Below are positions 10,918 to 42,671 of a stretch of DNA of 64,000 nt, piece by piece; position 1 is the stretch's first letter, and each line of letters begins with the position of its first letter. Source of the DNA: Candidatus Latescibacterota bacterium. Lineage in GTDB: Bacteria > Latescibacterota > UBA2968. A program made the position numbers and the translations under genes. The notes beneath the pieces are model-generated. The model did no database searches. It was given only the letters and a program-made list of their open reading frames with translations, and had not been told where the DNA came from. The stretch lies in NCBI GenBank assembly GCA_965220765.1, contig OZ244847.1, positions 320,646 to 384,645 of the forward strand. The letters are read 5' to 3'.

Positions 10918-10976
10918 AGGAATAAGCCGAAGCTGCTGACTGTAAGAAGTTGTCTTAAATATCAGGTACTGGATTT

Positions 10977-11008
10977 AAAAAGCACGCTCTAAATAGAGCG
11001 TGCTTTTT
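10977..11008 (+). terminator. rho-independent terminator after the dockerin gene
   Basis: AAAAA-GCACGCTCT-AAAT-AGAGCGTGC-TTTTT. Confidence 0.7.
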
Positions 11009-11017
11009 CATTCTCCC

Positions 11018-11046
11018 TTGACAGCCTCAATTCGCAGACCTATATA
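11018..11046 (+). promoter_or_regulatory. sigma70-type promoter giving a leaderless transcript for the membrane-protein/glycosyltransferase operon
   Basis: TTGACA (11018-11023), 17-nt spacer, TATATA (11041-11046); ATG at 11052, only 5 nt after the -10 element. Confidence 0.45.
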
Positions 11047-11051
11047 AAGTT

Positions 11052-12998: not shown

Positions 12999-13023
12999 TT
13001 TAAGACCTGTATTGCTTTTGATT

Positions 13024-13058
13024 TTCATCCTGTTCATCCTTTCATCCTGCACATCCTG
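13024..13058 (+). repeat. four imperfect tandem copies of (T)TCATCCT(G) in the 70-nt spacer before the glycosyltransferase gene
   Basis: tcatcctg / tcatcct / tcatcctg / catcctg with an 8-10 nt period. Confidence 0.5.
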
Positions 13059-13067
13059 ATCTGAGCT

Positions 13068-14894: not shown

Positions 14895-14927
14895 ATTAAA
14901 TAGACACCTGATATTGCCATACGTATA

Positions 14928-16949
14928 TTGGCTCGATTCATCATCCGCGCTATCCGCGTAATCCCCGTAATCCGCGATCCGATTCGGAGTCCCTCAATGG
15001 CCATTCGCGAAACCCAAACACAGACAGCACCACTTCAACGAGCCGTAACCGCGCGGTCCATTGTGATAGGTGCCCTGTGCGCGGGTTTCCTGGGATGGGG
15101 TGGACATTTTACGCGACACATTGCACACACGACAAAAATGGCGCAGGATCACTTGCCGTGGGGCGCAGTCGTGCCATTTTTGTTGATCGCGGTCGTATTG
15201 AATAAAGTACTGGAAAAAGTGCGCCCGCAATGGGTCTTGCGCCCTTCGGAATTGCTGGTCATCTTCAGCATGGGTCTGGTCGCATCGGCATTGCCCAGCT
15301 ATTTCATGGGACATTTGATCGCCAACGTCTCAGCGCCATTTTATTTTGCCAACACAGAGAACCGATGGGCAGATGACATACATCCTTATTTGCCCGACTG
15401 GGCGGTTGTAACCGATGTGACGGCTGCGCGGTGGTTCTTTGAGGGACTGCCAGCAGGTGCAACCATCCCCTGGGAAATCTGGATAACGCCGATGATCTGG
15501 CGATTGAGCCTGGTATTTATGATCGGCGTATTTGGATTCTGCGCGGTTTCAATCCTGCGCAAACAATGGGTGGAACACGAGCGCCTGACATTTCCATTGA
15601 TGACATTGCCACTGGAACTCGTCAACAGAGAACCGCGCGGATTCTGGCCCGTGGGCATAATGAATCGCCCCGTATTCTGGTGGGGATTCGCGCTGGCCTC
15701 ATTTCCCATATACTGGAACATGGTTGGATATTTCCAGCCGCTTTTTCCAACCATTCCCCGAGACCTGGGATTGATGGAATTCGGTCAGTATTTCCCGCCG
15801 ATTCATACGCGGTTTTACCCCGTAATCATTGGCGTATCGTATTTTATGGACCTGGATGTATTGCTCAGCATCATCGTCTTTCACCTGTTACTCACCCTTG
15901 AAATGGGGCTGTTCAACCGCCTGGGAATCGAAATAGGACCAACCCATGTGTGGCCGGCATCGCAATTTGAAAACTGGCAGGGTTTTGGTGCGCTGTGCGT
16001 ACTGGTGCCGTGGAGCTTGTGGATGGCGCGAGAACATTTGAGAAATGTATTTCGCAAAGCCGTGCTCAATGCGCGGGAGGTTGAAGACTCGGACGAATTA
16101 TTGTCCTACCGCACAGCACTCGGCGGATTGCTGGCGAGCGGACTATTTATTCTCGGCTGGTGTGTGGCGTCGGGCATGTCGGTCTTTGTCGCCCTGACCT
16201 TCTTGAGTCTTGTGGGCATAATCTGGCTGGGCATCACGCGCGTCTGCGTGGAAGGCGGCATGATCAGCAGCCGCATGATACAGGGACAATTTGTCGCCTA
16301 TCACCTGCTCGGTCCCGTGAATATTTCGCCATCGGGAATGGCGGCATTTGCGCTTACTGAAACATGGCACCACGATATAAAAACCATATTGATGGCGAAC
16401 CTGGCCAATGCCACGCGGCTTTACGACAGCATACGGCACGAAAGAATACGCCTGGTCATTGCCCTGGGACTGGCCATGCTGGTGGTGATAACCACAAGTG
16501 CATATTATCAAATATCATCGAGTTATGTAACCGGCGCATTTAATTACGGCGGCATTTACGGTCCCTATGTGCAAAACACTTTTGATACCATAGCCGGTCA
16601 TATTCGGGACCCCTTTGCCCTGAAGCGCGAGCGCATGCTCATCGCGCTCATTGGAATGGCAACCACGGCACTGATGCTGGCCCTGCGCTATGTATGGCCC
16701 TGGTGGCCCTTGCATCCGATCGGGTTTGCTGCCGTAACAGCCTATCCGGTCAATCGCATTGTATTTTCGATCTTCTTTGCATGGTTTTCCAAATTTATCA
16801 TATTGCGGGCGGGTGGCATTGATCTGTACCGCAAAGCATCGCCGTTTTTCCTGGGACTTATGGTGGGGTATTTCACGGGCGTATTTGTGTCATTTCTGGT
16901 AGATTGTATATGGTTCCCTGGGCAGGGACATTCACTGGCGTTGTATTAG
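14928..16949 (+). CDS. large polytopic membrane protein of unknown function (paralog 2)
   Basis: 673 aa from TTG 14928; alternative ATG at 14997 preceded by GGAG; paralogous to 11052..12998 along its full length. Confidence 0.65.
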   Translation: MARFIIRAIRVIPVIRDPIRSPSMAIRETQTQTAPLQRAVTARSIVIGALCAGFLGWGGHFTRHIAHTTKMAQDHLPWGAVVPFLLIAVVLNKVLEKVRPQWVLRPSELLVIFSMGLVASALPSYFMGHLIANVSAPFYFANTENRWADDIHPYLPDWAVVTDVTAARWFFEGLPAGATIPWEIWITPMIWRLSLVFMIGVFGFCAVSILRKQWVEHERLTFPLMTLPLELVNREPRGFWPVGIMNRPVFWWGFALASFPIYWNMVGYFQPLFPTIPRDLGLMEFGQYFPPIHTRFYPVIIGVSYFMDLDVLLSIIVFHLLLTLEMGLFNRLGIEIGPTHVWPASQFENWQGFGALCVLVPWSLWMAREHLRNVFRKAVLNAREVEDSDELLSYRTALGGLLASGLFILGWCVASGMSVFVALTFLSLVGIIWLGITRVCVEGGMISSRMIQGQFVAYHLLGPVNISPSGMAAFALTETWHHDIKTILMANLANATRLYDSIRHERIRLVIALGLAMLVVITTSAYYQISSSYVTGAFNYGGIYGPYVQNTFDTIAGHIRDPFALKRERMLIALIGMATTALMLALRYVWPWWPLHPIGFAAVTAYPVNRIVFSIFFAWFSKFIILRAGGIDLYRKASPFFLGLMVGYFTGVFVSFLVDCIWFPGQGHSLALY

Positions 16950-16959
16950 AGGCTATGCC

Positions 16960-19539
16960 ATGTCTAACGGCAAAAGAAAAATTCTCTCCATTCGCGAACC
17001 CATCCTTATCGCCTTCATTCTCTTGACATGTGCGCCAGCCTGGGGAGACAGCCTGCAGGAAAGTTTCGATGTACGGGCAGATTCCCTCGCTGCGGTTCTG
17101 ATCGCAGAACGCGCCGGACCAGACAGCGCAGCCATCTATCGGGCATTGAATCGGGAAGAGAAAGCACAATTTTTGCTGGACTTCTGGCAACGACAAAATC
17201 CCGTAGTACTGCAATTTTATTACGAGTATCACATCGGGCGTCGCTACCTGACGGTATCAGACGCTTTTTTTGAACGCGGGCGATTGATACCCCAGCGCTA
17301 TAAAACGCGCGCCGCACCACCAGATCCCGCCCTGCTCGACGACGCTGTTGCACTATTTGAACGAATACTACGGGACGATGGCGAAAACCGAATTGCCCTG
17401 TGCGCGCTGGGATATTGTCTGTTAGAACAGCACAAAGGCCTGGAAGCAGAACGCATTTTTGTGCGCGTACTGGAAAAAGATCGGCGGTTTCTCATCGCGC
17501 GACACGGCCGGGCACTGGCGTGCTTGATCCAGAAAAAACAGGTGCGCCGGGCACTGGACCTTTTTCAGGATACCGTCTCTCTCGATTCGAAATACGAAGC
17601 GGCGTATTACAATTTAGCAATGTGCCACCTGGCAATGCGCAGCGTGGATATGGACCATCATTTTAGCAATGTGGTCAAACGCTTCCCGCAACATCGCGAT
17701 GCGTATTTTAAGCTGGGGGTGTTTTACGAATCGCTCTATTATTTTGAAAAAGCCGTCAAGGCATTGTCAAAACAGGTCGCTGTAAATCCAGCGCACAGCG
17801 TGGCACGGGGCAGGTTAGCGCGCGTGGCTATGGAATTGAAGTATTTGAAACAAGAATTGCACACCACCACAGAATTGCGCGATCTCGCCCAAAAAGACCC
17901 CGAGCGTTATCTGCCGCTTTTGGGCGCACAATATCTGGAATCGGGTGCGTACGAACAAGCAGAAGCGTCATTTTCGCAATTTTTATCCATCCTGCCGCAA
18001 AATGAACGCGACCTGTACGAAGATGTCACCCTGATCCTGTCTGCAAAAGAATTTGAGACCTTTCGCATGATCGGAGGAGAGGAAAAACGCGCATTTACCA
18101 ACTTGTTCTGGCGCAAAATAGACCCAACACCCACCACACTGGTTAACGAGCGCAGGTTGGAACACTACCGGCGCGTCAATTACGCGATACAGAACTTTTC
18201 CGAAGGCCGAATACCCTGGGATGCGCGCGGCGATGTATATATCCGATTTGGTCATCCCGATCACAGAAGCTGGTCCGATCACCTCGTATTCGAAACCAAT
18301 GCAAAAGTGATTCGGGTAAAAAACCGACTCATGGACCTCGCGGGACAAGCACTGCACGAAATCGTTCCCACGACATCGCTACAGATAGAATCGTCTTTGG
18401 GCGCAAGCACGGTAATGAAGGCGACACCCGAGGTTCGGGGACTGCCGATATTTCCCATGCCGCACCAGGGGGCAGTATTTCGAGATGGCGCGTCTTTGAA
18501 CTACAAGTGGGAAACCTGGATTTACGCCCATATTGGCGAGGGATTTGAAGTGACATTCCTCGATGCCCTGGGCAATTTCAATTTTCAATTTCCCCAGCCG
18601 CCTGTTGACTCGCCCAATCGATTGCTGTGGCAACACCTCGCACCCGAAGCCGTGGTCGCACGGGTCGTCAACCGCACGCCCTCTGTTTACCACTATCCAT
18701 ATCCCGGAGACCCAATGCCGCTGCTTATGTCGGTCGCAGATTTCCGGGGAAATGGACGCGATACGCGCCTGGATGCTTTTATCGGCATTCCCTGGGCTGC
18801 ACTGAAAACGCAAAAACGGGGAACACAGATATCGGCTTCGGTGAATCGAATGTGGGTCCTCTATGACGCACAGGGAACAGAAATTGCCCGCGACAGCCTG
18901 AACACGCGAGCAACACAGCCCGAAACCGTTGACGACCCCGGCGTTTTATGGGTGGATCAGATCACAACAGAAGTTAAACCCGGCCACTATCTCATGGCTG
19001 TACGAGTGTCCGACCCTGCCTCAGGGAAACTACAAATCCGCCGACAACTCGTCGATATAGAAGCATATAACGCCCCGACCCTGATGGTAAGCGACCTTGT
19101 CGTGGCGGGAAAAATTGCAACAATAGAAGCCCGTGCAGAAGGCAAATTCATCCGAGACGAACTCGAAGTGCTCCCCCTGCCATCACACACCTTTGCCCCA
19201 GAACAGCCAGTCTATCTGTACTATAAAGTGTACAACCTCTTCCGAGATGACACAGGACAAACGCATTACCGCGTGGATTATGCTGTACGCGGCAGCAAAA
19301 ATGCCGGCGCCCGGGTGCTAAAAGGCATCGGCACATTGCTGGGCATATCTGAAAGGCAAGAAGGGGTACAGGTATCTTATGAACATCGGGGCAACACGGA
19401 AACAGAACCCGTATATGTTGCCCTCAATGTAGCGGCAAAACCGGGACAAAAACTCACGATAGGCGTAACCGTAACCGACCTGAACCGCCCGGGGAAACCA
19501 ACAGCGACAAAAGATGTTTGGGTAGCAATAGGAAAATAA
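16960..19539 (+). CDS. secreted TPR-repeat protein with GWxTD-type domain
   Basis: Signal peptide (ILIAFILLTCAPAWG); TPR-like repeats; region FTNLFWRKIDPTPTTLVNERRLEHYRRVNYAIQNF..GRIPWDARGDVYIRFGHPD matches the GWxTD domain pattern as remembered. Confidence 0.55.
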   Translation: MSNGKRKILSIREPILIAFILLTCAPAWGDSLQESFDVRADSLAAVLIAERAGPDSAAIYRALNREEKAQFLLDFWQRQNPVVLQFYYEYHIGRRYLTVSDAFFERGRLIPQRYKTRAAPPDPALLDDAVALFERILRDDGENRIALCALGYCLLEQHKGLEAERIFVRVLEKDRRFLIARHGRALACLIQKKQVRRALDLFQDTVSLDSKYEAAYYNLAMCHLAMRSVDMDHHFSNVVKRFPQHRDAYFKLGVFYESLYYFEKAVKALSKQVAVNPAHSVARGRLARVAMELKYLKQELHTTTELRDLAQKDPERYLPLLGAQYLESGAYEQAEASFSQFLSILPQNERDLYEDVTLILSAKEFETFRMIGGEEKRAFTNLFWRKIDPTPTTLVNERRLEHYRRVNYAIQNFSEGRIPWDARGDVYIRFGHPDHRSWSDHLVFETNAKVIRVKNRLMDLAGQALHEIVPTTSLQIESSLGASTVMKATPEVRGLPIFPMPHQGAVFRDGASLNYKWETWIYAHIGEGFEVTFLDALGNFNFQFPQPPVDSPNRLLWQHLAPEAVVARVVNRTPSVYHYPYPGDPMPLLMSVADFRGNGRDTRLDAFIGIPWAALKTQKRGTQISASVNRMWVLYDAQGTEIARDSLNTRATQPETVDDPGVLWVDQITTEVKPGHYLMAVRVSDPASGKLQIRRQLVDIEAYNAPTLMVSDLVVAGKIATIEARAEGKFIRDELEVLPLPSHTFAPEQPVYLYYKVYNLFRDDTGQTHYRVDYAVRGSKNAGARVLKGIGTLLGISERQEGVQVSYEHRGNTETEPVYVALNVAAKPGQKLTIGVTVTDLNRPGKPTATKDVWVAIGK

Positions 19540-22004: not shown

Positions 22005-25000
22005 ATGAAGCCGGATAAATCAGACCAACCAATAGCGATCATAGGTATGGCGTGTCGATTTCCCAACGCGCCGAATATCTCTGCCTTCTGGCGTCTGCTC
22101 GAAGCCGGTCAGAACGCCGTGACAGAAGGGGCCCCAGGCTCTGGCGTTGGTCGCGTGGGCACGCTCTTCCCAAACGCTGAGGTGCAGAACGACGCCTGCC
22201 GTTTCGGCGCCTTCGTCGATGACATCGACCTGTTCGACGCCACCTTCTTCCGCATTTCGCCGGTCGAAGCGCAACTGCTGGATCCCCAGCAACGGATGAT
22301 GCTGGAGACGAGTTGGCAGGCGCTTGAGGACGCGGGGATAGATCCGGATCGGCTAAAGGGTAGCCGCACCGGTGTGTACGCAGGAATCAGCAACAACGAT
22401 TATCGGGGCGTAATTCTGGGATCCAGCAGAACTGCCGAGCCTTCCGCCAGCCTCTTCTCTGTCGCGGGCACCTCTCTGAACACAGCCATAGGTCGAGTAG
22501 CCTTCGCATTGGGTCTGGGGGGACCGGCAATGGCGGTAGATACTGCCTGTTCGTCGTCGCTGGTTGCGACAAACCAGGCGGTTGCTGAATTGCAGCAGGG
22601 CAAAGCGGATCTGGCACTGGCGGGCGGGGTGCAGGCGATCCTTTCCGGGCGGCTAACCGAACTGCGGGGAAATGCCGGAATGTTGTCGCCAGACGGGCAA
22701 TGCAAGGCGTTTGATGCATCTGCGAATGGCTTCGTGCGAGGTGAAGGCTGCGGAATTGTGGTCCTCAAACGACTGAGCGAAGCAGAGGCCGATGGCGATC
22801 ACATCTGGGGCGTCATCCGAAGCACCGCGGTAAACCAGGATGGCGCGAGTACAGGCCTGACGGTACCAAACGGTCCGGCACAGGAGCGCGTGATCGAAGA
22901 GGCACTATCGCGGGCGGGAATTCTGCCATCGGAAGTCGATTATGTAGAGGCACACGGAACGGGCACAGAGGTGGGCGACCCCATTGAGATAAACGCGACA
23001 GCAGCGGTGTACGGCAAGGGGCGCGAGGAGGACAACCCGATACTCGTCGGCTCGGTAAAAACAAATATCGGTCATCTGGAGCCAACCGCGGGGATTGCGG
23101 GCCTGATCAAGACCGTACTCTCGATGAAGCAGGGCGTGATCCCAAAGCATCTGCACTTCGAGAATCCCAATCCGAACATGGACTGGGATCGACTACCTCT
23201 GCGAGTGACTTCCGAGGCAATGGACTGGCCGCTCAACGCCGAACGACCACCGATTGCGGGAGTGAATTCGTTCGGATGGTCGGGCACAAACGCGCATGTT
23301 ATAGTGGAAGGGTACGGAACACCAAAAAGCAGTGATGAAGAGTATTTACCCGTGGGACTCGCACGGCCTGTTGCCATTTCTCTACCGAAGTCAGTGCTAC
23401 CGTCGGAGGAAGAACTCGGCGCGCGCAGGACGCGATTGCTGCCGCTATCGGGAAAATCCGATGAAGCGCTTCGAGACCTGGCGAGGCAGTACCTGAAACG
23501 CGATTTTGCTTCCGAAGATGAAGCCCTGCTTGCCGACATGGCGTGGACAGCCGGCGTGGGACGAAGCCATTTCCCTCACCGCGCGGGCATCGTATTCAGC
23601 GATGGCGCATCGCTGCGCGAGAGCCTGAATGCACTCGCAGAGATCAGCACGAGACCTGCGCCGCAAACACCCTCCAAAATCGCATTTGTATATACCGGAC
23701 AGGGTAGCCAGTGGGTCGGCATGGGCGAGCACCTGTACCACACCGAACCAGTGGTGCGGACAGTGCTGGACCAATGCGACGCCGTGCTGCGGGAAGCGAG
23801 AGGTGCCTCGTTGCTCGATGTGATATTCGGTCGCGCTGGTGATTTATCCGACCAGGAGTGGACACAACCAGCCATTTTTGCGATAGAATGTGCACTGACA
23901 GCACTCTGGAAAAGTGTGGGTATTACACCCGGTGTGGTGCTCGGACACAGTCTTGGAGAACTGGCAGCGGCGCAAGCAGCAGGTGTCTTTAGCATAGAAG
24001 AAGGTGTGCGATTTGCTGCGGCGAGAGGCGAACTGACAGCGACACTGCCCGGTGGTGGGGCCATGGCGGCCATTTTTGCGGACGTGTCACAGGTAGAATC
24101 AGCCCTCGACGAATTGAACGCAGCCTCCACAGGCGTGGGACTGAGCATTGCGGCATACAACGGAGCGCATCAGGTGGTGAGCGGTCCCGAAGAAGAGATC
24201 GAGACGATCTCCGAGCACTTCCTCGCGCAGGACATTCGGGTCAGCCGCTTGCGCACCACGCACGCATTCCACAGTGCATTGGTAGAGCCGATGCTGGACA
24301 AACTGGATGCCATAGTCTCAGAGATCGCGATCGCGCCCCCATCGCTCACCCTGGTGAGCAATGTGACGGGTCAGGTGCTGGAAACGGGAAAACGTCAGGA
24401 TAGTGCGTATTGGCGTCAGCACACGCGAAAGCCAGTGGCATTTGCGCCAAGCATCGAGACATTGGCTGGGCTGGGCGTCGATCTGGTCATTGAAGTGGGT
24501 CCGCACGCCGTGCTGAGTACAATGGCGACCCTGTCGTGGCCAGACACGGCAGGGGATCCTCCTGTTGCGCTACCGAGCTTATTGCGTCCCTCGTCCAAAG
24601 TGTCGCAAGCAGAAGCCGACCGCGCATTTACAGAGGCAGTTGCAAATGCTTATGAGGCGGGTCTTTCCGTGTCCTTTGCCGGACTGTTCGCAGGTGAAAC
24701 CCGGCGCCGTATTTCGCTACCGGGCTATCCTTTCCAGCGCGAACGCTACTGGGTCGAAACACCGAAACGACGGCGGCAAAGCACCGGTCATCCCCTCCTG
24801 GGCGAGAGGCATGAATCCGCCAGCGGCGAAATTGCGTTCGAGACGGAGATTTTTCCATCGGATCCGACTTGGCTGAACGATCACAGGGTGTTCGGCCGTG
24901 TCATAGCCCCGGGCGCGTTCTATGGGGCAATGGCGATATCGGCATCCACCGCCGAGAGAAGCGGATCGATGGTCATCGAGGAAATGCAACTGCACAATGC

Positions 25001-28000: not shown

Positions 28001-31000
28001 TCACGCAGGCGCAGGCGGCGTGGGGCTTGCGGCCATCCAGTGGGCGCAGGCAGCGGGAGCGGAAGTGTTCGCGACGGCGAGCGCGCCGAAACAGGCGTAT
28101 CTCCGCTCGCTCGGTGTAAAGCATGTGTTCGACAGCCGTCAGACGAAATTTGGGGAGGAAATCCTCAAGGCCACGGACGGCGCAGGGGTCGATGTGGTAT
28201 TGAACAGCCTGACGGCGGAGGGTTTCATAGACGCGAGTCTGGCGTGTCTGGCGCATGGTGGCCGGTTCGTGGAATTGGCGGCGCGGGACATTCTGAGCGA
28301 GGAAGAGATGGCGGCCGTACGGCCGGACGTGGCCTATTACATCGTGAATCTTCATGCCCTGAAGGGGGATGACCCGGCGCGACCCGGCGCTTTGCTGAGA
28401 GACATCATGGAACGGCTGTCAGCGGGAGAACTAACGCCGCTCATCCACACCAGATGGCCGCTTGCCGAAGCGAGACGGGCCATTGAGTTCATGCGCGACG
28501 GCAGACACATCGGAAAAATCGCCTTTGCGAATTCGCCGCTCACCAGTGGGCGGTTGCGAGAGGATCGAACCTATCTGGTAACAGGTGGTCTGGGTGGGAT
28601 CGGGTGCGTAATGGCCGACTATTTGGCGGATCGCGGCGCAGGTGCAATCGCGCTAAACGGGCGCCGGGCACCGGACCCTGAAGCCGAAGAGACGATCCGC
28701 AGGCTGCGGGAACGCGGCGTGACAGTGCAGGTAGAGATCGCAGATGTGACGGACGCCGATGCAATAGATGAGATGCTGGCGCGGATGGATGAGACGCTAC
28801 CGCCGCTCGGGGGCGTAATCCACAGCGTGGGGGTATTGTCGGACGGTGCGCTCGGGAACCAGAGTTGGGAAAGATTCGAGCAGGTGCTGTGGCCGAAGGT
28901 GTTGGGCGCGTGGCATCTGCATCGCGCGACTGAGGACCGCGATCTGGATATGTTTGTCCTCTTCTCCAGCGTGGCCGGCGTGCTGGGCAATCCGGGCCAG
29001 TCGAATCACGCGGCGGCCAATGCGTTTCTGGATCAACTCGCCGCGCATCGCCGCGCACTCGGACTTCCGGGACAGACCATCGCCTGGGGCGCCTGGTCGG
29101 AACTCGGCGAAGCGGAAGAACAACGGGAACGGATTGCCGAACGGCTGGAAGCGCGAGGAACGGATTGGATCACGCCGCAGCAAGGTCTCAGGGCATTCGA
29201 CCAACTGGTGCGCGAGGACGCCGCGACATCCGTCGTGCTGGCAGCCGATTGGTCGTCTTACGAGGAGGGCCTGGAATACCGGATGCCCCTGCTGGAGGAT
29301 CTGCTCTCCACCATTTCAGAAGACGAGGCCGATTCGCCTGCTCTGGCGGACGACCTGATGTCCCGTCTGGCGGAAACGCCCGCGGCGGAGCGTGAAGCCC
29401 TGTTGGTATCGTTCCTACAGCAGGAATTACAGGCGGTGCTGAGGTTGCCGACAGCACCGGAGCCTACAGTGGGATTTTTCGATCTGGGGATGGACTCGCT
29501 GATGGCCGTAGAGTTGCGAAACCGCCTGAACCGGGCATTTGCCGATGAGTACGTGGTACCCAACACTGTGGTATTTGACTACCCGGACATCGCCCGTCTC
29601 GCCAACCATCTAATTGAGGAACTCGGCGAAGTCAGCACTGCGCCCGTCCCTCCACCCCAGGTGCAACCCGAACCAGAACCACAGACGGAAGTACAGCGCG
29701 AGGACAACGGTATTGCGATTGTGGGCATGGCCTGCCGCTTCCCCGGCGCCCCGGATCTTTCCGCCTTCTGGCAGCAGCTCGAAGCAGGTGCGGACGCGGT
29801 GACCAACGGACGCCGGGATTCCGGTTCATGGAACGCTCTTGCCAAAGACCTTCCTCCCGAATACGCCGCCTATCGCCGGGGCGGATTTGTGGAGGGAATT
29901 GATCAATTTGACGCGAGATTCTTTCGGATTGCGCCGATTGAAGCGCGCATGATGGATCCGCGGCAACGCATGATGCTGGAGACGACCTATCAAGCGCTCG
30001 AGGATGCGGGAATTGATCCAGACAAATTGAGGGGCAGCCGCACCGGGCTATACGCTGGCATCGCCACCAGCGAATACCGGGACCTGATGACAGCCAGCGA
30101 CCACGGCATCAGTTATCTGAGCACTGCCGCGAGCATGACGGTCGGGCGAATTGCTTTCCTTCTCGGTTTGGAGGGACCAACGATACCGGTGGAACTCAAC
30201 TGCGCGTCATCATTGGTCGCGGTACATCAGGCAGTGATGGGTTTGCGAGAGGGCGAAGTGGATATGGCTCTGGTTGGAGGGACACACGCAGTTCTGTCTC
30301 CTGAGTTAACCAAAGAGATGGCGGAGTTGGGGATATTATCGCGGGAAGGGCAGTGCAAAACCTTCGATGCCTCTGCGGATGGCTTCGTCCGGGGTGAGGG
30401 CTGTGGGATGATCGTCCTCAAACGGCTGAGCGAGGCAGAAGCCGATGGCGACCGCATCTGGGGCGTGATCCGCGGGTCAGCGGTCAACCAGAACGGGGCC
30501 AGCGCAGGACCCACAGTACCAAACGGACCGGCGCAGGAGCGGGTGATTGAGGAAGCACTGTCGCGAGCGGGCGTTGCCCCATCAGAAGTGGATTATCTGG
30601 AAGCACACGGGGGTGCGTCGGAGTTGGGCGATCCGATCGAAGTGCAGGCAGCGGCTACTGTTTATGGCAAGGGACGCGAAGCAGACCGACCGCTTTTGAT
30701 CGGCTCTGTGAAGACCAACATCGGTCACCTGGAACCAGCTGCTGGCGTTGCGGCTCTGATCAAGGCAGTACTCGCCATGAAGCGGGGGGTGATTCCTAAA
30801 AACCTGCACTTTGAGAATCCGAGCCCGCATATAGACTGGGACCGGCTTCCAGTACGAGTAACTTCAGAACTGACAGACTGGCCGCGCCATCCCGACCGAC
30901 CGCCGCGGGCGGGGGTCAGCGCCTTCGGGATATCGGGCACAAATGCCCATGCTGTCGTAGAAGGATATGACAGCCCGGATGCAACGCCTGTGGGTTCCGC

Positions 31001-32063
31001 GCAACCCGTTTCTCTGTCGGTCGTGGATCTCATAGGCGAGGAAGAAGAATTCGCTCTGCGCCAGACGCGGCTCCTGCCCCTATCGGGAAAATCCGATGAG
31101 GCACTGCGAGATCTGACAGGACGCTATCTATCGTGGCTCGACGAGCTTGCATCCGAAGATGAGGCGACACTTGCCGACATGGCGTGGACAGCAGGTGTGG
31201 GGCGCAGCCATTTCGATCACCGCGCAGGCATCGTATTCCAGGATGTTGAATCGCTGAGAGAGAGGTTACAGACACTCGCAGAGATCGGTGAAAGACCAGA
31301 ACCGCATACGGCGACAAAGGTCGCCTTCGCGTACACCGGACAGGACAGCCAGTGGATCGGCATGGGGAAAGACCTCTACGAAAGCGAGCCGGTAGTCCGC
31401 GCAGTTCTGGACCGTTGCGACGAAGTCCTTCGGGAAGAGCGTGGCACCTCGTTGCTGGACGTGATGTTCGGTCAGACCGACGATCTATCTGATCTGCCAG
31501 CCATCTATGCACTGGAATCCGCACTTACAGCACTGTGGTCAAGCGTGGGGATTCAGCCCAGCGTGGTGGTCGGACGCGATATCGGGGAAATTGCAGCAGC
31601 GCAAGCGGCAGGCGTCTTTAGCTTAGAGGATGGCTTGCGAATCGCGCTGGAGCGGGACACAGACAGTCTGGAAGCCACCCTCGCAGACGTCACAATCGCA
31701 CCGCCATCTTTGACTCTGGTGAGCAGTGTAACAGGAGAGATCGAGAGCCTTGACGCAGCATACTGGCATCGGCAAGCGCAGGCGCCAGTGGCATTCGACA
31801 AATGCATGAAGAAGCTGGCCGATCAGGGGATTGATGTACTCATCGAGATTGGTCCAAACTCAGTGCTGGACCCGATAGAGGGCGACGCGGAACCACCCGT
31901 TGTCTTGTCGAGCCTGGGAGACGACGGGTTTGTAGAAGCAGTAGCGAAGGCGTATGAAGCGGGACTTTCTGTTTCATTTCCCGGACTATTTGAGGGAGAA
32001 ACGCGCCGCCGCATCTCCTTGCCGAGCTATCCATTCCAGCGTCAGCACTACTGGATTCAATAG
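22005..32063 (+). CDS. type I polyketide synthase: KS-AT-DH-cMT-ER-KR-ACP-KS-AT(degenerate), no ACP/TE at C-terminus
   Basis: Motifs read directly: DTACSSS, HGTGT, GHSLGE, HAFHS, HRVFGRVIAP, VIEVGAGTGS, LIHAGAGGVGLAA, YLVTGGLGGIG, LGMDSLMAVEL, ELNCASS, HGGAS, GRDIGE; RBS GGAGGTG 4 nt before ATG 22005. Confidence 0.9.
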   Translation: MKPDKSDQPIAIIGMACRFPNAPNISAFWRLLEAGQNAVTEGAPGSGVGRVGTLFPNAEVQNDACRFGAFVDDIDLFDATFFRISPVEAQLLDPQQRMMLETSWQALEDAGIDPDRLKGSRTGVYAGISNNDYRGVILGSSRTAEPSASLFSVAGTSLNTAIGRVAFALGLGGPAMAVDTACSSSLVATNQAVAELQQGKADLALAGGVQAILSGRLTELRGNAGMLSPDGQCKAFDASANGFVRGEGCGIVVLKRLSEAEADGDHIWGVIRSTAVNQDGASTGLTVPNGPAQERVIEEALSRAGILPSEVDYVEAHGTGTEVGDPIEINATAAVYGKGREEDNPILVGSVKTNIGHLEPTAGIAGLIKTVLSMKQGVIPKHLHFENPNPNMDWDRLPLRVTSEAMDWPLNAERPPIAGVNSFGWSGTNAHVIVEGYGTPKSSDEEYLPVGLARPVAISLPKSVLPSEEELGARRTRLLPLSGKSDEALRDLARQYLKRDFASEDEALLADMAWTAGVGRSHFPHRAGIVFSDGASLRESLNALAEISTRPAPQTPSKIAFVYTGQGSQWVGMGEHLYHTEPVVRTVLDQCDAVLREARGASLLDVIFGRAGDLSDQEWTQPAIFAIECALTALWKSVGITPGVVLGHSLGELAAAQAAGVFSIEEGVRFAAARGELTATLPGGGAMAAIFADVSQVESALDELNAASTGVGLSIAAYNGAHQVVSGPEEEIETISEHFLAQDIRVSRLRTTHAFHSALVEPMLDKLDAIVSEIAIAPPSLTLVSNVTGQVLETGKRQDSAYWRQHTRKPVAFAPSIETLAGLGVDLVIEVGPHAVLSTMATLSWPDTAGDPPVALPSLLRPSSKVSQAEADRAFTEAVANAYEAGLSVSFAGLFAGETRRRISLPGYPFQRERYWVETPKRRRQSTGHPLLGERHESASGEIAFETEIFPSDPTWLNDHRVFGRVIAPGAFYGAMAISASTAERSGSMVIEEMQLHNALIFPEESADNDEGRGREMQVLLEAPGEAPSRLVRIFSKGEAEEDWTLHAECRAPSDAGARQASEQVDLESLKAGLSPEDVPAFYRAKAGVGIDLGPSFRTLRMVWSRAGEALGEVCFPEALGGNDLDVHPLLLDGCFQVMGAARNPGGAEDGITYLPFGWERLWLPDRLPDRFLCHVRMREASKNREPDAETGGSPEVFVGDFLLYDQSGVLIGELSGFMVKRATRAALLSAVEGVQELLYEVMWRESALAPGLLPADFLPSPGEVADRWELFSDYLAAEGVDAGLRPAWLADLSCMARHFALSALEKLGWERKVGTAVDSEDLRQRLGVLDEHSRLFRRMLEILARAGVLEAAGEDFVVAVGAGDPLPEGIPGNPEQFAAQVSERYSYASSEIGIFRRSAGALAEVLRGEEDPLSLLFGSGEPSAADLYFKAPIYRASNRMLGDAVRTLVAGLPEGRRLRVIEVGAGTGSATESVLPELPEGRYDYMYTDISAGFFAQAEGLFGDECIEYRVLDIEKDPVEQGFDAHGYDLLIASNVLHATRYLEETLTHCRSLLAPSGHLVALENLCGQDWLDMTFGQLDGWWRFSDDCRPTYALAGPDVWRQSLGSVGFEGVEILGLGGPDAAEIPDRGVILAQLPEDVAERRGVWVLAEDRGGAAAVLAMELAARNQTVVLASDAGSTGEGPADEKTAVIHTSLEMEHRESWQSLLEGLPADAPLSGVVHLVALDGRGSDTTTAEMAEDVKRVGASALALAQGLADADVTPEKGLWFLTRGAQVLERERAGELVGATLWGFGKVLAREASHMQPKMIDLDPEPTAPPIDLANELLYPDTEDQIVHRGSRRRVARLVRTGEGTDRINLPEEPGWMLGVGEDGAIADLQVAPTPLESKEVRVAVEAAGLNFWDVFAALGLIDEKFLGTEFCGHTIEVGSEVASVAVDERVVGLAFGSFGPEVVTRAELLAPAPPDLSATALASMPTVFVSVALSYELAGLKAGDRVLIHAGAGGVGLAAIQWAQAAGAEVFATASAPKQAYLRSLGVKHVFDSRQTKFGEEILKATDGAGVDVVLNSLTAEGFIDASLACLAHGGRFVELAARDILSEEEMAAVRPDVAYYIVNLHALKGDDPARPGALLRDIMERLSAGELTPLIHTRWPLAEARRAIEFMRDGRHIGKIAFANSPLTSGRLREDRTYLVTGGLGGIGCVMADYLADRGAGAIALNGRRAPDPEAEETIRRLRERGVTVQVEIADVTDADAIDEMLARMDETLPPLGGVIHSVGVLSDGALGNQSWERFEQVLWPKVLGAWHLHRATEDRDLDMFVLFSSVAGVLGNPGQSNHAAANAFLDQLAAHRRALGLPGQTIAWGAWSELGEAEEQRERIAERLEARGTDWITPQQGLRAFDQLVREDAATSVVLAADWSSYEEGLEYRMPLLEDLLSTISEDEADSPALADDLMSRLAETPAAEREALLVSFLQQELQAVLRLPTAPEPTVGFFDLGMDSLMAVELRNRLNRAFADEYVVPNTVVFDYPDIARLANHLIEELGEVSTAPVPPPQVQPEPEPQTEVQREDNGIAIVGMACRFPGAPDLSAFWQQLEAGADAVTNGRRDSGSWNALAKDLPPEYAAYRRGGFVEGIDQFDARFFRIAPIEARMMDPRQRMMLETTYQALEDAGIDPDKLRGSRTGLYAGIATSEYRDLMTASDHGISYLSTAASMTVGRIAFLLGLEGPTIPVELNCASSLVAVHQAVMGLREGEVDMALVGGTHAVLSPELTKEMAELGILSREGQCKTFDASADGFVRGEGCGMIVLKRLSEAEADGDRIWGVIRGSAVNQNGASAGPTVPNGPAQERVIEEALSRAGVAPSEVDYLEAHGGASELGDPIEVQAAATVYGKGREADRPLLIGSVKTNIGHLEPAAGVAALIKAVLAMKRGVIPKNLHFENPSPHIDWDRLPVRVTSELTDWPRHPDRPPRAGVSAFGISGTNAHAVVEGYDSPDATPVGSAQPVSLSVVDLIGEEEEFALRQTRLLPLSGKSDEALRDLTGRYLSWLDELASEDEATLADMAWTAGVGRSHFDHRAGIVFQDVESLRERLQTLAEIGERPEPHTATKVAFAYTGQDSQWIGMGKDLYESEPVVRAVLDRCDEVLREERGTSLLDVMFGQTDDLSDLPAIYALESALTALWSSVGIQPSVVVGRDIGEIAAAQAAGVFSLEDGLRIALERDTDSLEATLADVTIAPPSLTLVSSVTGEIESLDAAYWHRQAQAPVAFDKCMKKLADQGIDVLIEIGPNSVLDPIEGDAEPPVVLSSLGDDGFVEAVAKAYEAGLSVSFPGLFEGETRRRISLPSYPFQRQHYWIQ
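22026..23315 (+). other. PKS domain KS1 (active-site Cys codon 22548-22550)
   Basis: GMACRF..DTACSSS..EAHGTGT..NIGHLE..GTNAHVIVEGY. Confidence 0.8.
23678..24545 (+). other. PKS domain AT1 (active)
   Basis: YTGQGSQW, GHSLGE (Ser codon 23949-23951), THAFHS. Confidence 0.75.
24790..25660 (+). other. PKS domain DH
   Basis: HPLLGER...LNDHRVFGRVIAPGAFY (HxxxGxxxxP). Confidence 0.65.
26190..26880 (+). other. PKS domain C-methyltransferase
   Basis: SAM motif I VIEVGAGTGS at 26385-26414; ...LLIASNVLHAT. Confidence 0.65.
27500..28535 (+). other. PKS domain ER
   Basis: LIHAGAGGVGLAAIQWAQAAGAEVFATAS NADPH motif. Confidence 0.7.
28560..29100 (+). other. PKS domain KR
   Basis: YLVTGGLGGIG Rossmann motif; ...NHAAANAFLD. 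Confidence 0.7.
29380..29600 (+). other. PKS domain ACP (in cis)
   Basis: LGMDSLMAVELRNRL (Ser codon 29496-29498). Confidence 0.7.
29710..30970 (+). other. PKS domain KS2 (Cys codon 30201-30203)
   Basis: GMACRF..ELNCASS..EAHGGAS..NIGHLE..GTNAHAVVEGY. Confidence 0.75.
31318..32060 (+). other. degenerate, truncated AT2 (Ser to Asp at 31578-31580; about 110 aa shorter, HAFH region missing)
   Basis: YTGQDSQW, GRDIGE in place of GHSLGE; no HAFH motif; ends YPFQRQHYW. Confidence 0.7.
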
Positions 32064-32154: not shown

Positions 32155-32394
32155 ATGGCTTCAACTGCAGAACGTATCAGAAACCTCATCGCGGAAAATC
32201 TGGAAGTTGATGGGCAGCCAATTTCGTTGCCCGATGACCTGAGCATCAGCCTCTTGGAGGCCGGAATTTCCTCCGTAGATCTCGTCGCGTTCGCGAAAAT
32301 AGTCGAACAAGAATTTGACGTTAAATTGACTCTTGAAGATTGTGCTAATCTCAACAGCGTACAGGAACTGGTCGCGCGGCTGGACGCAGCCTGA
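32155..32394 (+). CDS. discrete acyl carrier protein (79 aa)
   Basis: MASTAERIRNLIAENLEV...LLEAGISSVDLVAFAKIVEQEF (four-helix ACP pattern with Ser in GISSVD); RBS AAAGGAG 7 nt before ATG 32155. Confidence 0.7.
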   Translation: MASTAERIRNLIAENLEVDGQPISLPDDLSISLLEAGISSVDLVAFAKIVEQEFDVKLTLEDCANLNSVQELVARLDAA

Positions 32395-32521: not shown

Positions 32522-34264
32522 ATGAATACCAATAATCCCAGCGGTGACACAGGTATCCGCTACCAGCCCGACGAAAGGCCTCCGGCGACACTCGCCCTCG
32601 GCCTTGGCTTGCAACTCGCCGTTCTCAGCATAGCCGCCATCATATTGGTCCCGACAGTCGTGATGCGCGCCGCAGGTACGACTGAAGCCTATCTGTCATG
32701 GGCCGTGTCTGCCACGGTCGTAGTTGGCGGGGTGGCCACAATTCTGCAATCAATCCGCATCGGTCGAATCGGCATGGGTTACCTGCTCATTATGGGTCCA
32801 TCCGGAGCCTTCATCGCGGTCTGCATCACGGCCATTACCGAAGGCGGTCCGGCGATGCTCGCCACCCTGGTCGTCATCTCATCCTTCGTCCCGCTTGTAC
32901 TTTCCCATCGGCTTTCGCTGTTTCAGCGACTCTTGACGCCGACCGTCGCGGGAACAGTAATCATGCTGATACCCATTACGATAATGCCGCCCATTTTCAA
33001 TCTGCTATCGGCGCCCGGCGCACCAGCGTTCGCTGCGCCGCTGAGTGCGCTTGCAACAATCATCATTATCAGCGGCATCGCGCTAAAGGCGACTGGGGTG
33101 TTACGCCTCTGGGCACCGGTTATCGGCGTTGTCGTCGGCTCGATAATTGGCGGCTTCTTCGGCCTATACGAAGTGGACCGCATTGCCGAGGCTTCGTGGA
33201 TCGGCCTGCCGCCGAACGAATGGCCGGGCTTTGATCTCGATTTTGGACCAACTTTCTGGGCACTTCTTCCCGCATTCTTGCTCGTAGCCATAATCAGTAC
33301 CATCCGAACGATCAGCAGCTCCGTCGCCATCCAGCGCATATCGTGGCGTCAGAGCCGAGCAGTGGATTTCCAAGCGGTGGGTGGTGCGATAACCGTAGAT
33401 GGGATAAGCAACTTGATTTCCGGTCTCGCAGGAACAATACCCAACACAGCCAACACGCTGGGCGTGTCGATGGCCGAACTCACCGGGGTTGGTGCCCGCA
33501 GCGTCGGGGTTGCCACCGGAGCAGTGTTCATTGCTATGGCATTTCTTCCGAAAGTACTCGCTCTGATCCTCGCGATACCAGGTCCCGTCATCGCAGCTTA
33601 TCTCACCGTACTCCTGGCGGCACTCCTCGTAGTCGGAATAAAGATACTCACTCAGGATGGAATTGACTATCGCAACGGCATGATCGTCGGCATCGCGTTC
33701 TTTGTAGGGATTGGTTTTCAGAGCGGCCTGATATTTCCCGAATATATCTCGGAATTTGCAGGCGGTCTTTTAGAGAATGGAATGAGCGCGGGTGGTTTCA
33801 CTGCCATTCTCATGACGCTGTTTGTGGAACTAACAGAACCTCGCCGCAGCCGGATAGAGATGACATTCGATTTTTCCGCCCTGCCAAAAATCAGGGACTT
33901 TCTCAGCGCATTTGCATCCCGCAATAGTTGGGACGCCGCAATGGCGAACCGTCTGGACGCCGCTGCTGAGGAAACATTGCTAACACTCATACCAGATGAA
34001 GAAGAACACGACCGCCGGCACTTGCGCCTGATTGCGTACAAAGAAGAAGGCGACGCGGTTCTCGAGTTCGTTGTCTCGTCGGGAGAAGATAACCTTCAGG
34101 ATCGGATCGCGCTGCTCAGCGAACAGACGGACGAAACCCCTGTGGAGCGAGAAGTTTCTCTTCGGCTGTTGCGACATCTCGCATCATCTGTTCGCCACCA
34201 GCAATACCACGAAACAGATATCGTAACCGTGCGTGTGAAAGCCCACCATCACGCACCGCCATAA
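32522..34264 (+). CDS. APC-superfamily permease (NCS2/SulP-like) with about 140-aa C-terminal cytoplasmic domain
   Basis: About 12 hydrophobic segments with Gly-rich helices typical of NCS2/SulP 7+7 transporters; charged soluble C-terminal tail. Confidence 0.5.
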   Translation: MNTNNPSGDTGIRYQPDERPPATLALGLGLQLAVLSIAAIILVPTVVMRAAGTTEAYLSWAVSATVVVGGVATILQSIRIGRIGMGYLLIMGPSGAFIAVCITAITEGGPAMLATLVVISSFVPLVLSHRLSLFQRLLTPTVAGTVIMLIPITIMPPIFNLLSAPGAPAFAAPLSALATIIIISGIALKATGVLRLWAPVIGVVVGSIIGGFFGLYEVDRIAEASWIGLPPNEWPGFDLDFGPTFWALLPAFLLVAIISTIRTISSSVAIQRISWRQSRAVDFQAVGGAITVDGISNLISGLAGTIPNTANTLGVSMAELTGVGARSVGVATGAVFIAMAFLPKVLALILAIPGPVIAAYLTVLLAALLVVGIKILTQDGIDYRNGMIVGIAFFVGIGFQSGLIFPEYISEFAGGLLENGMSAGGFTAILMTLFVELTEPRRSRIEMTFDFSALPKIRDFLSAFASRNSWDAAMANRLDAAAEETLLTLIPDEEEHDRRHLRLIAYKEEGDAVLEFVVSSGEDNLQDRIALLSEQTDETPVEREVSLRLLRHLASSVRHQQYHETDIVTVRVKAHHHAPP

Positions 34265-35706
34265 GCCCTCGCAAAGTAGGTCTGAAACCCCTCTGGCCCG
34301 GGCCAGCCATCGAAAAGGTGACAGTTCTCGGGCACCTCGCCTTCTGCGCCGTTTTTGAGCCAGTCGATCAGAATGGGATCAGCACCCCGGCGCTCGAGTT
34401 CAGAAAGACCCGCGGCATGCAGGTTCTGGACGCGGGCGGGATATTCCGACGCCGTATTGTCCAGCGACCCATAAGGCGTGAGCATGCAGTCTGCTGCTTC
34501 GGGTTGCCATTCCAGATACCCCTCCTGATCGAACACAGTGAAAAAACCGCGCTGTTTTGCCCATCCTCGGGCAGTGCCCGCAAGCGCGAGTTGTCGCATC
34601 CCTGAACTGCTTTCCCGCGCGGCGGTGAGAATATCCTGGCTGTCTATATTTCCCGGAATGGGCGCACCAGCCAGATTGGCGACAGTAGCGTAAAAATCCT
34701 GGGGTTGGAAGATGGCAGAACTGCGCCCCGCGTCACCCTCGGGCGTTTTAATAATAAGCGGAATGTGAATCTCCTGCTCATACACAGGCGCGTACTTGCC
34801 AAAGCGCCCGCGCTCGCCTACATTGGTCCCGTGATCCCCGGCAATAATAATCGCGGTATTTTTGCTCAGGCCCGTGGCGTCGAAGGCTTCGAGAAACCGC
34901 CCAAAGCAGTGATCCATCCATGTGACCTTGGCGGCATAACTCGCTTTGAGGCGTGTTTTGGCTTCATCGGGTAAATTGGGATTGTTGCGTCCCCCGCCCT
35001 GAAAAGCGCGGGGATCAAGCCGCCCATCGTAACCGGGAGTTTTGTCGTATTTCAGCATAAAAGCCGGCGGCACATCCCACGGTTCGTGGGGATCGAAACA
35101 ATCAATCCACAGAAAGAAATTTTCCCGCCGCGCATTATCCCGCAAGAATTGAGCTGCGGTATTGAACAACTTCGCGCAATTCCAGTCGTCTAAATTTGTG
35201 CGCCCCCGGTTAGTACGGGCATACGTGTAATTGTGTTTTGTCAGATCTGCGTCCTCTCCCAGAACATCGAATACGGGATCTTTGCACCAGTTGGTCGGCC
35301 ACTGCGCTTCGTCGTCCATCCAGGCCCGGTCAACTTCTGCACCGCGAATAAATGTCCATGTGTGGAACGGATAATCAAATGCGTGCCCACCGTTGACGAG
35401 ATGAGGCGTATCGTGAATGAGTTGTGTCGCGTATCCCGTTTCGCCCAGCACAGAGGGAAGAGAGCGCGTGTCAAAAGGCAGGGGTTTCCAGGTGTGGAAC
35501 GGACTGCCGTATTTTCCAGTCATAACATCCGTGCGATAGGGAATGGTCGGAAAGCTGGCGGCAAAAGCGCGGTCAAAACACCACGACTGCGCGGATAGAC
35601 GGTCGAGATTGGGCGTTTCGATCCAGTCATTTCCGTTCGCACCAATATAGTCATAGCGCATTGTATCAATAATAATGAGGACAATATTCATGGAATCTCC
35701 CTTCAC
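34249..35706 (-). CDS. sulfatase-family (alkaline-phosphatase superfamily) protein lacking the formylglycine Cys/Ser (TxPxR instead of C/SxPxR)
   Basis: IIIDTMRYD...AFAASFPTIPYRTDVMTG aligns to the sulfatase signature region with Thr at the FGly position. Confidence 0.55.
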   Translation of the reverse strand: MKGDSMNIVLIIIDTMRYDYIGANGNDWIETPNLDRLSAQSWCFDRAFAASFPTIPYRTDVMTGKYGSPFHTWKPLPFDTRSLPSVLGETGYATQLIHDTPHLVNGGHAFDYPFHTWTFIRGAEVDRAWMDDEAQWPTNWCKDPVFDVLGEDADLTKHNYTYARTNRGRTNLDDWNCAKLFNTAAQFLRDNARRENFFLWIDCFDPHEPWDVPPAFMLKYDKTPGYDGRLDPRAFQGGGRNNPNLPDEAKTRLKASYAAKVTWMDHCFGRFLEAFDATGLSKNTAIIIAGDHGTNVGERGRFGKYAPVYEQEIHIPLIIKTPEGDAGRSSAIFQPQDFYATVANLAGAPIPGNIDSQDILTAARESSSGMRQLALAGTARGWAKQRGFFTVFDQEGYLEWQPEAADCMLTPYGSLDNTASEYPARVQNLHAAGLSELERRGADPILIDWLKNGAEGEVPENCHLFDGWPGPEGFQTYFARAYGGA

Positions 35707-41375: not shown

Positions 41376-42671
41376 TCATCCATGAGACCCCTTCACACCA
41401 ATCGGCCAATTAGGGGAGTCTGTGCGCGCATCTTTCATAAAACTCTCGATTTCAGCGATCACATCCGGATGATCCGCGGCGACATCGTTTTCCTCGCCAA
41501 TATCCCTGTCCAAATCGTATAACTCGAGTGGTTCGTCAAGCAATAGGGGCGACGGATTGCGCACGGCCTTCCAATTTTTCCAGCGCACAGCCTGTTTGAA
41601 ACCCCCGCTAAAGCGCTCCCAGTACAAAAAGCGCTCCCCAAGATCCTGTGATTCACCCAACAGCGTCGGCAATATGCTAACGCCATCCATATTCTCTGGC
41701 GCGTCTGTGCCGGTCACGTCTGCAACCGTAGGCATAAAATCGGCGTAATACCACACCTGATCGCTCACAGTCCCCGCAGGGATACGATCGGGCCAATGCA
41801 CAATCATAGGCGTACGCAAACCACCTTCATACATCGTCCCTTTTTGCCCGCGCAAAGCACCACAACTGCCAAATGGTTCCCACCGGCGTGCGGCCCCATG
41901 GTCAGAACCAAAAAACAAAAGCGTATTGTCCTTTACCCCCAGTTCGCGCAACAAATCCGCAATTTGTCCAACCTGTGTATCAATCTTTGTAATCATCGCC
42001 GCATAAACTTTCTCATCATCCGTCCAGGGTTTATCGTCCCAGGCACTCGCATCGGGGATTTCATATCTCCCGTGCGGCAATGTCCACGGCAAGTACAAAA
42101 AAAACGGACCATCGCTATTGTTGCGAATAAAGTCACAGGCAAAGTCAAAAATCATATCGTGAGAATAGTCGTTCTCCTCGCCGTCCAGATTGCCCTTGAG
42201 AATAACCTTCTCTTCATTGTGCCACAAAAAAGGCGGATAATACGAATGCGCATTGCGCTGGTTGAGATAGCCAAACCATTCATCAAATCCCTTGCGCGTG
42301 GGAATACCCGCCGAATCGGGTTCACCCAATCCCCATTTCCCCGTTATCCCAGTGGTATATCCCCCCTCCTTGAGCATCTCGGCAACCGTAAAATCCTCCG
42401 GCTCAAGCGGCACCCGTTTCTGCTCTCCCACACCGCCCACAATGCCCATATTGTCGCGCACCCTCGTATGCCCACTGTGCAAACCCGTCATTAAAACCGA
42501 GCGAGATGGCGCGCAGATTGAAGACCCGGTATAACACTGTGTGAACCGCATGGATTCCGACGCAAGCTGGTCCAATCGGGGTGTGGGAATAACCTTTTGC
42601 CCATAACAACCCAGATCGCCATAGCCAATATCATCACAGAGAATAAAAATAATGTTGGGCAATGACATCAT
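41376..42671 (-). CDS. Cys-type sulfatase (arylsulfatase family)
   Basis: LCDDIGYGDLGCYG...SSICAPSRSVLMTGL (CxPxR FGly motif). Confidence 0.8.
   Translation of the reverse strand: MMSLPNIIFILCDDIGYGDLGCYGQKVIPTPRLDQLASESMRFTQCYTGSSICAPSRSVLMTGLHSGHTRVRDNMGIVGGVGEQKRVPLEPEDFTVAEMLKEGGYTTGITGKWGLGEPDSAGIPTRKGFDEWFGYLNQRNAHSYYPPFLWHNEEKVILKGNLDGEENDYSHDMIFDFACDFIRNNSDGPFFLYLPWTLPHGRYEIPDASAWDDKPWTDDEKVYAAMITKIDTQVGQIADLLRELGVKDNTLLFFGSDHGAARRWEPFGSCGALRGQKGTMYEGGLRTPMIVHWPDRIPAGTVSDQVWYYADFMPTVADVTGTDAPENMDGVSILPTLLGESQDLGERFLYWERFSGGFKQAVRWKNWKAVRNPSPLLLDEPLELYDLDRDIGEENDVAADHPDVIAEIESFMKDARTDSPNWPIGVKGSHG

Follow-up and report, generated by a model that had tools for sequence, protein, structure and literature searches.

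The Sup ('sponge symbiont ubiquitous') polyketide synthase (PKS) cluster, running from SupA to the permease SupE, goes back to Fieseler et al. 2007 (AEM 73:2144) and Hochmuth et al. 2010, as cited in passages of PMC3908369, PMC4245539 and PMC9426513. The passages of PMC4245539 on the sup genes call them 'unusual, small monomodular' type I PKSs; these passages and those of PMC3908369 on the same genes have them dominate PKS surveys of high-microbial-abundance sponges and name mid-chain methyl-branched fatty acids as the product, which is put forward as a proposal only. The SUP cluster family appears in metagenome-assembled genomes (MAGs) of several phyla in the passages of PMC9426513 that mention it, and PMC3908369, in its entry on clone pAPKS18, lists SupE (ABE03914) as a permease. 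Here we describe a type I PKS gene in a 64,000-nt stretch of contig OZ244847.1 (the window) from a Candidatus Latescibacterota bacterium, and on the basis of its architecture, distribution and neighbours we regard it as a further member of the Sup family. The PKS ends in a second ketosynthase (KS2) and a second, partial acyltransferase (AT2°). Very probably this AT is a vestige of long standing that the whole family shares, and the KS to which it is joined is catalytically intact. For the whole mechanism, in which KS2, the vestigial AT and a discrete acyl carrier protein (ACP) would form a split second module loaded in trans, we estimate a probability of roughly 0.55–0.6.

The open reading frame (ORF) of the PKS is unbroken over 10 kb and is listed from a GTG start; translation more probably begins with the ATG of codon 8 (nt 22005). 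Pfam gave the domain order KS1-AT1-DH-cMT-ER-KR-ACP-KS2-AT2°, with the second KS and the partial AT making up the last quarter of the ORF. The gene thus encodes a small PKS of type I whose only complete module is a reducing one of the fatty acid synthase (FAS) type and includes a methyltransferase. Such genes were found in several phyla, many of them under sponge-derived names from which a sponge origin is taken, their accessory genes include a permease, and their KS sequences form a clade of their own. Like the locus described here, Sup has a FAS-like reducing module with a C-methyltransferase, occurs in sponge symbionts of many phyla and is accompanied by a permease and small accessory genes. 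The published SupA presumably also carries a further KS(-AT) after its ACP, and SupB is presumably an ACP. The gene order is hydrolase-PKS-ACP-permease in the window, where a search for a phosphopantetheinyl transferase (PPTase) gene found none, whereas many relatives have PKS-ACP-PPTase-hydrolase-permease. No named SupA was found among the homologues of AT2° and of the KS1 amplicon region, which were metagenome fragments or carried generic 'polyketide synthase' names.

Other known systems resemble the locus in part. Modules of trans-AT PKSs (PksJ/PksL KS structures 4na1 and 5erf) have a KS with a KS-AT-type linker, no working AT and an extender supplied in trans, as would be the case in the window, and the linker-only Sup variants described below (L030, L034, L045 and others) resemble such a trans-AT KS plus linker in outline. 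Unlike trans-AT modules, the window gene has kept most of the AT large subdomain, the ACP of the proposed module is a separate protein, the KS clusters with the KSs of cis-AT systems and with KS1, its own paralogue, and no discrete AT gene stands in the cluster or among its neighbours. The best sequence and fold matches were the cis-AT KS-AT didomains of CurL (4mz0), DEBS module 5 (2hg4) and Lsd14 (7s6b). Unlike these, the AT of the window has no Ser, His or small subdomain, and the didomain closes the protein with no processing domains or ACP after it. Fully reducing single-module synthases of the animal FAS and mycocerosic acid synthase type share the KS-AT-DH-(MT)-ER-KR-ACP order of module 1, but the last domain in them is a thioesterase, if anything follows at all, and a second KS-AT° with its discrete ACP is not part of them.

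To compare the two KS-AT copies, aa 1–935 of the PKS were locally aligned with aa 2561–3359. The results showed that KS1-AT1 (aa 11–925) and KS2-AT2° (aa 2570–3359) are collinear over 786 aligned pairs with 64% amino acid identity and a BLOSUM62 score of 2422, far above chance, and that the collinearity runs from the start of the KS to the YPFQR...W that closes each post-AT linker. A first-pass annotation of the window had read the second KS-AT as a copy of the first, and both the paralogy and its landmarks were found where it had placed them. The verbatim repetition that it had reported for the post-KS linker and the AT N-terminus also holds for the protein: two peptides of 15–16 residues, both lying in the KS-to-AT linker of the second copy, are identical in the two copies, namely RLLPLSGKSDEALRDL at aa 484 (nt 23433) and aa 3029 (nt 31068), and LADMAWTAGVGRSHF at aa 516 (nt 23529) and aa 3063 (nt 31170). 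From the first copy to the second, GHSLGE (aa 654) has become GRDIGE (aa 3197), which is the Ser-to-Asp change noted before, GQGSQ has become GQDSQ, and HGTGT of KS1 (aa 324) has become HGGAS in KS2 (aa 2875). One contiguous block of 88 aa (AT1 aa 682–769), which begins just past a conserved Arg and stops after HAFH, is absent from AT2°, as are about 25 residues in small gaps; the earlier estimate of some 110 deleted residues, including HAFH and the small subdomain, was therefore accurate. In FabD-type transferases the missing block corresponds to the ferredoxin-like small subdomain and the catalytic His.

At the DNA level the two copies turned out to be far from the 'almost verbatim' repeat that had been suggested. 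The stretch quoted for it was 79% identical and no tract was higher; the longest repeat tracts between the copies were 71–77% identical, the best 300-nt tracts 75–77%, and the whole aligned region 67%. A self-repeat comparison of the PKS gene, which had been recommended as a check, revealed no near-exact or long exact DNA repeats anywhere in the gene. The 298 four-fold degenerate sites under identical amino acids were 47% identical, against roughly 28% that the base composition of third positions in the gene would predict; this corresponds to a dS of about 1, near saturation. Four-fold identity in sliding windows ranged from 0.27 to 0.67 (with small n), and no gene-conversion tracts between the copies stood out. 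Judged by these synonymous sites, the verbatim peptides are kept through selection on the protein and not through recency.

The age of the arrangement was further examined in other genomes. A homologue search with the AT2 region gave 489 proteins at E ≤ 1e-20. Among the best 120 of these 489, about 100 had no small subdomain and nearly all had no nucleophile Ser (mostly GxGxGE), and AT2° homologues in this set ended right past YPFQRxxxW. The database homologues listed as P0001–P0271 were all fragments of less than 600 aa, and those inspected begin at an internal Met, while full-length calls of 3119–3354 aa exist on the contigs; length-based conclusions from homologue tables are therefore misleading. 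A scan at one genome per species yielded 79 loci, in which the domain order was mapped by tblastn. The order KS1-AT1-DH-cMT-ER-KR-ACP-KS2-AT2° was present in about 58 species-level genomes of at least ten phyla, the taxa including Latescibacterota, Gammaproteobacteria, Alphaproteobacteria, Chloroflexota/Dehalococcoidia, Gemmatimonadota and Nitrospirota as well as Dadabacteria, Binatia, Acidobacteriota, Acidimicrobiia and Rhodothermaceae. Many of the names under which the loci are recorded point to sponges (APA_bin, RHO_bin, 'Palauibacter irciniicola', 'Poriferisocius'), and it is by such names that single MAGs are assigned a sponge origin.

A neighbour-joining tree was made of 50 KS1, 59 KS2 and nine other cis-AT KSs with 200 bootstraps, three non-Sup multimodular loci being left out of the Sup set. 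KS2 formed one clade in 195 of 200 bootstraps, KS1 in 122, and KS1 and KS2 together in all 200. This joint clade sets the Sup KSs apart from the other cis-AT KSs, a small outgroup of nine from other fetched loci. The mean identity of KS2 to KS2 between genomes was 65%, and that of KS1 to KS2 within one gene 58%. On this tree, the duplication took place once, ahead of the diversification of the family, and no homogenisation of the copies followed. Because the synonymous sites are nearly saturated, KS2 is monophyletic and the degenerate AT2 is family-wide, we place both the duplication and the inactivation before the spread of the family.

The residues of AT2° were then considered. It has no Ser in a GHSxG motif, no catalytic His (HAFH or YASH) and no ferredoxin-like small subdomain; since the nucleophile, the catalytic His and the small subdomain are all missing, AT2, as its sequence reads, cannot be a working acyltransferase. 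The nucleophile position is taken by Asp3199 (nt 31578–31580), and the deletion junction at which the small subdomain and HAFH are lost lies at aa 3225/3226 (approximately nt 31659). Across the Sup-type loci, GHSLGE is kept only in L004 and the HAFH region in none, GQGSQ is degenerate, and the nucleophile position is D, G, S or N even among close relatives. An Arg equivalent to the carboxylate-binding Arg is kept in many AT2° (ALERD / AAARG). The tail that follows KS2 falls into a long class of 340–443 aa, an AT core without the small subdomain, in which the 364 aa of the window gene are among the shortest, and a short class of 167–191 aa (L030, L032, L034, L040, L045, L048 and L051). In these seven loci nothing of the AT core remains, and KS2 is followed by just the KS-AT linker and the post-AT linker with YPFQRxxxW; the KS-to-AT linker of the second copy is kept in every Sup-type locus, including those without the AT core. 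The linker-only forms sit in at least two separate places of the KS2 tree, so that the AT core has been lost completely at least twice. The window PKS ends 5 residues past YPFQR, and its orthologues end likewise, within 0–15 aa.

In the first copy, by contrast with AT2°, the motifs are complete (GHSLGE at aa 654, HAFH at aa 760 and, in the post-AT linker, YPFQR at aa 915). AT1 is predicted to be malonyl-specific by the rule that HAFH is a malonyl signature, which is established knowledge and is also given in a passage of PMC3908369. In the KR domain of module 1, at about nt 28970–29020 (aa ~2330–2345, motif GNPGQSNHAAANAFLD), we observed a His at the position where the catalytic Tyr of type I PKS/FAS (GQxNYAAAN) is expected. 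All 62 of 62 Sup-type KR matches have this His, and the other multimodular PKSs in the same loci have Tyr in 24 cases and His in 8.

KS2 presented a different picture. Cys2740 lies in NCASS (aa 2739), and Lys2910 and His2915 form the K-x4-H of KTNIGH. Across 59 orthologues, the Cys, the Lys and the second His were found in 59/59 and the first His in 56/59, and around the first His the flanking residues alone are relaxed, to H[GA]x[GA]S. The kept Cys and the HGGAS in place of HGTGT had both been pointed out in the first-pass annotation; both are there, yet HGGAS retains the catalytic His, and the Cys-His-His set is complete. Non-elongating KSs (KS0) of trans-AT systems usually lose the His of HGTGT. 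By these residues KS2 is catalytically intact and not degenerate.

The selective constraint on the domains was estimated by the pooled Nei-Gojobori method from seven near-identical relatives of the window gene (L002, L082–L087). The dN/dS values were 0.087 for KS1, 0.10 for KS2, 0.13 for the AT1 core, 0.21 for the AT2° core and 0.3–0.5 for the linkers of both copies, by which the AT2° remnant in the window lineage is somewhat relaxed but clearly not neutral. We also built an AlphaFold2 model of aa 2563–3359 from an 80-row alignment (mean pLDDT 86.8, pTM 0.81), a check that had been proposed together with the duplication. The model superposed as a whole on KS-AT didomains with TM values of 0.80–0.85, TMq being 0.84 for CurL (4mz0), 0.85 for Lsd14 (7s6b) and 0.81 for DEBS module 5 (2hg4). 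At the whole-fold level, the KS, the linker, the AT large subdomain and the post-AT linker are predicted to keep their usual arrangement, and by its dN/dS and this model the AT2° remnant behaves as a retained structural piece.

The discrete ACP gene begins 92 nt past the PKS stop and is preceded by GAAAGGAG. Its product matches type II ACP families weakly and below threshold. Near 45 of the 58 Sup-type loci, linker-only loci included, there is a homologue in which a GVSSxD motif is conserved, and we propose that the discrete ACP is the partner of KS2. Neither this gene nor the near-universal catalytic residues of KS2 had entered the earlier account, in which the second AT had decayed into a structural scaffold. 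That account is right in so far as the piece is retained, with a dN/dS of 0.21 and a fold match; a mere scaffold does not fit with a live KS2 and a discrete ACP, and because of these two features we consider KS2-AT2° to be the probable front half of a split second module.

The mechanism that we propose is as follows. An ancestor of the family duplicated its KS-AT didomain onto the C-terminus of the PKS, after which the second AT lost its Ser, its His and its small subdomain; a remnant of the large subdomain survives, along with both of the linkers wrapped around the KS, and KS2 itself stayed catalytically intact. Given its domain set, module 1 would extend an acyl primer with malonate, add a methyl branch and reduce the product. 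The chain would then move from the integrated ACP to Cys2740 of KS2, which would condense it with malonate carried by the discrete 79-aa ACP. As AT2° is dead, this ACP would have to be loaded in trans, by AT1 or by the FabD of the cell. The product on the free ACP may be processed by the fatty acid enzymes of the cell or released by the alpha/beta-hydrolase encoded next to the PKS, which is a candidate chain-releasing hydrolase; its gene ends 6 nt before the PKS ORF, and a homologue occurs near 43 of the 58 species-level Sup-type loci.

The reading given in the first-pass annotation, i.e., that the KS-AT was recently duplicated in tandem within this gene and that the second AT has since been decaying into a scaffold without activity, could draw on the collinear paralogues with their identical 15–16-aa peptides and on an AT2 that is devoid of catalytic residues and varies freely at the nucleophile position (D, G, S) among close relatives. 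It was rejected, and we now find it hardly credible: with a dS of about 1 and no near-exact DNA tract the duplication is not recent, the KS2s form a single clade although their 59 genes come from many phyla, about 58 species-level genomes share this degenerate AT2, and an AT2° core with a dN/dS of 0.21 does not evolve neutrally. That the truncation is an artefact of assembly or gene calling has a probability next to nil. Many database proteins of this family are indeed fragments starting at an internal Met, and gene calls are often broken; this explanation is nevertheless contradicted by an ORF uninterrupted over 10 kb and by the recurrence of the same junction, both in seven assemblies that are nearly identical but independent and in further genomes by the dozen, complete chromosomes included.

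The remaining alternatives concern what the two domains do. KS2 might be non-elongating, acting as a gatekeeper or transacylating KS like the KS0 of trans-AT systems or as a dimerisation element only, and the chain would pass unchanged to the discrete ACP or to the hydrolase. The relaxation of HGTGT to H[GA]x[GA]S throughout the KS2 clade would be in line with this, as would a module without a working AT or processing domains and a cluster hydrolase that could take the chain directly. We consider it unlikely, as the first His is kept in 56/59, and the second His and the Lys in 59/59, though a KS0 typically loses the His of HGTGT, and as KS2 has a dN/dS on a par with that of KS1 and a dedicated ACP is co-conserved. 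AT2° itself might still be an enzyme which uses another nucleophile, or it might bind and deliver either malonyl-CoA or an AT that acts in trans. Such a role is favoured by the purifying selection that the remnant is under, by the equivalent of the carboxylate-binding Arg that many members keep, and by the GHSLGE of L004, but it appears very improbable when no member has the catalytic His or the small subdomain, which makes up half of the active-site cleft, the nucleophile position drifts between D, G, S and N among close relatives, GQGSQ is degenerate, and the core was completely lost at least twice.

Several points weigh against the split second module or against parts of it. The change from HGTGT to HGGAS may affect decarboxylative condensation by KS2, and the His for Tyr in the KR makes full reduction in module 1 uncertain. 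The AT2 core appears to be structurally dispensable, as seven lineages do without it. In 13 of the 58 loci no discrete ACP was found in the examined flank, some of these being cut by contig ends, and the window contains no stand-alone AT gene. The assignment to Sup, finally, is made from architecture, distribution and neighbours rather than from the sequence of the type SupA (clones pAPKS18 and pSW1H8).

A wider idea can be attached to the split-module reading, which we offer as tentative and on balance doubtful. The Sup family may show three stages side by side, i.e., the full AT1, an AT without its small subdomain and the linker-only form, and so document the path from a cis-AT module to one that lacks an AT and is loaded in trans; KS2 and the free ACP might then be an adaptor through which the methyl-branched chain made by the type I synthase reaches the cell's own fatty acid enzymes of type II.

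Features of the PKS locus; positions refer to the 64,000-nt window, and all genes listed are on the + strand.
Feature	Position (nt)	Strand	Evidence
Alpha/beta-hydrolase gene, 308 aa	21052..21978	+	Pfam Abhydrolase_6 E=3.9e-9
Type I PKS gene, 3359 aa	21984..32063	+	ORF list, translation, Pfam
KS1 (aa 11-440), KS-AT linker, intact AT1 and post-AT linker	22014..24758	+	
Integrated ACP of module 1 (aa 2478-2543)	29415..29612	+	Pfam PP-binding E=2.3e-12
KS2 (aa 2570-2995)	29691..30968	+	Alignment, orthologue comparison
KS2 catalytic sites (predicted)	Cys2740 30201-30203; His2875 (HGGAS) 30606-30608; His2915 30726-30728	+	
KS-to-AT linker, second copy (aa 2996-3110)	30969..31313	+	Pfam CurL-like_PKS_C / RhiE-like_linker
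AT2° core (aa 3111-3300), large-subdomain remnant	31314..31883	+	Alignment, dN/dS, AlphaFold2 fold match
Post-AT linker (AYEAGLSVSF...RRRISLPSYPFQRQHYWIQ) and stop codon	31884..32063	+	
Discrete 79-aa ACP gene, GISSVD serine motif	32155..32394	+	PF00550 E=2.1e-11
NCS2/xanthine-uracil-type permease gene, 580 aa	32522..34264	+	Pfam Xan_ur_permease E=1.5e-42; NCBIfam

With regard to the neighbouring genes, an NCS2-type permease, a permease being what SupE is too, was found near 27 of the 58 Sup-type loci and a PPTase gene in about 26; no other PKS gene lies near the one in the window. The G+C content is 61% in the PKS gene, 48–51% in the flanks and 50% in the adjoining hydrolase and ACP genes. 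Because the PKS gene differs in this way from its flanks and is spread over many phyla, horizontal acquisition of the gene is suggested. The genes flanking the cluster include sulfatases (34249–35706 and 41376–42671) as well as PhyH, enolase-superfamily and SMP-30/gluconolactonase genes; the observation extends to L001 and L082–L087, and the downstream synteny is conserved in six near-identical genomes. Elsewhere in the window, a gene pair consisting of a DUF6785+DUF6784 membrane protein followed by a TPR protein occurs twice in tandem, at 11052–12998 and 13068–14894, and at 14928–16949 and 16960–19539.

Two observations were made on other loci of the scan. L040 ('Candidatus Aldehydirespirator sp.', approximately 370–18100) contains a tandem of two Sup-type clusters, and there is a separate discrete ACP for either cluster. 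L058, L061, L063, L065 and L066, from Bryobacterales, Vicinamibacteria and Rhodobacter MAGs, encode multimodular PKSs of repeated Sup-like modules (KS-AT-DH-cMT-ER-KR-ACP), whose KSs are 57–64% identical to KS1 of the window.

For genome annotation, these results caution against taking such a truncated AT for a pseudogene or for the trace of something recent. In the stepwise AT loss across the family, work on the deletion or exchange of AT domains has a useful natural example; in evolutionary terms it is a modest curiosity. In surveys of PKS genes from sponge microbiomes, the sup genes are the dominant group. The reading of the C-terminus as a live KS2, a dead AT and a separate ACP would tell which proteins a reconstitution must co-express, and it would imply that the extender is loaded in trans.

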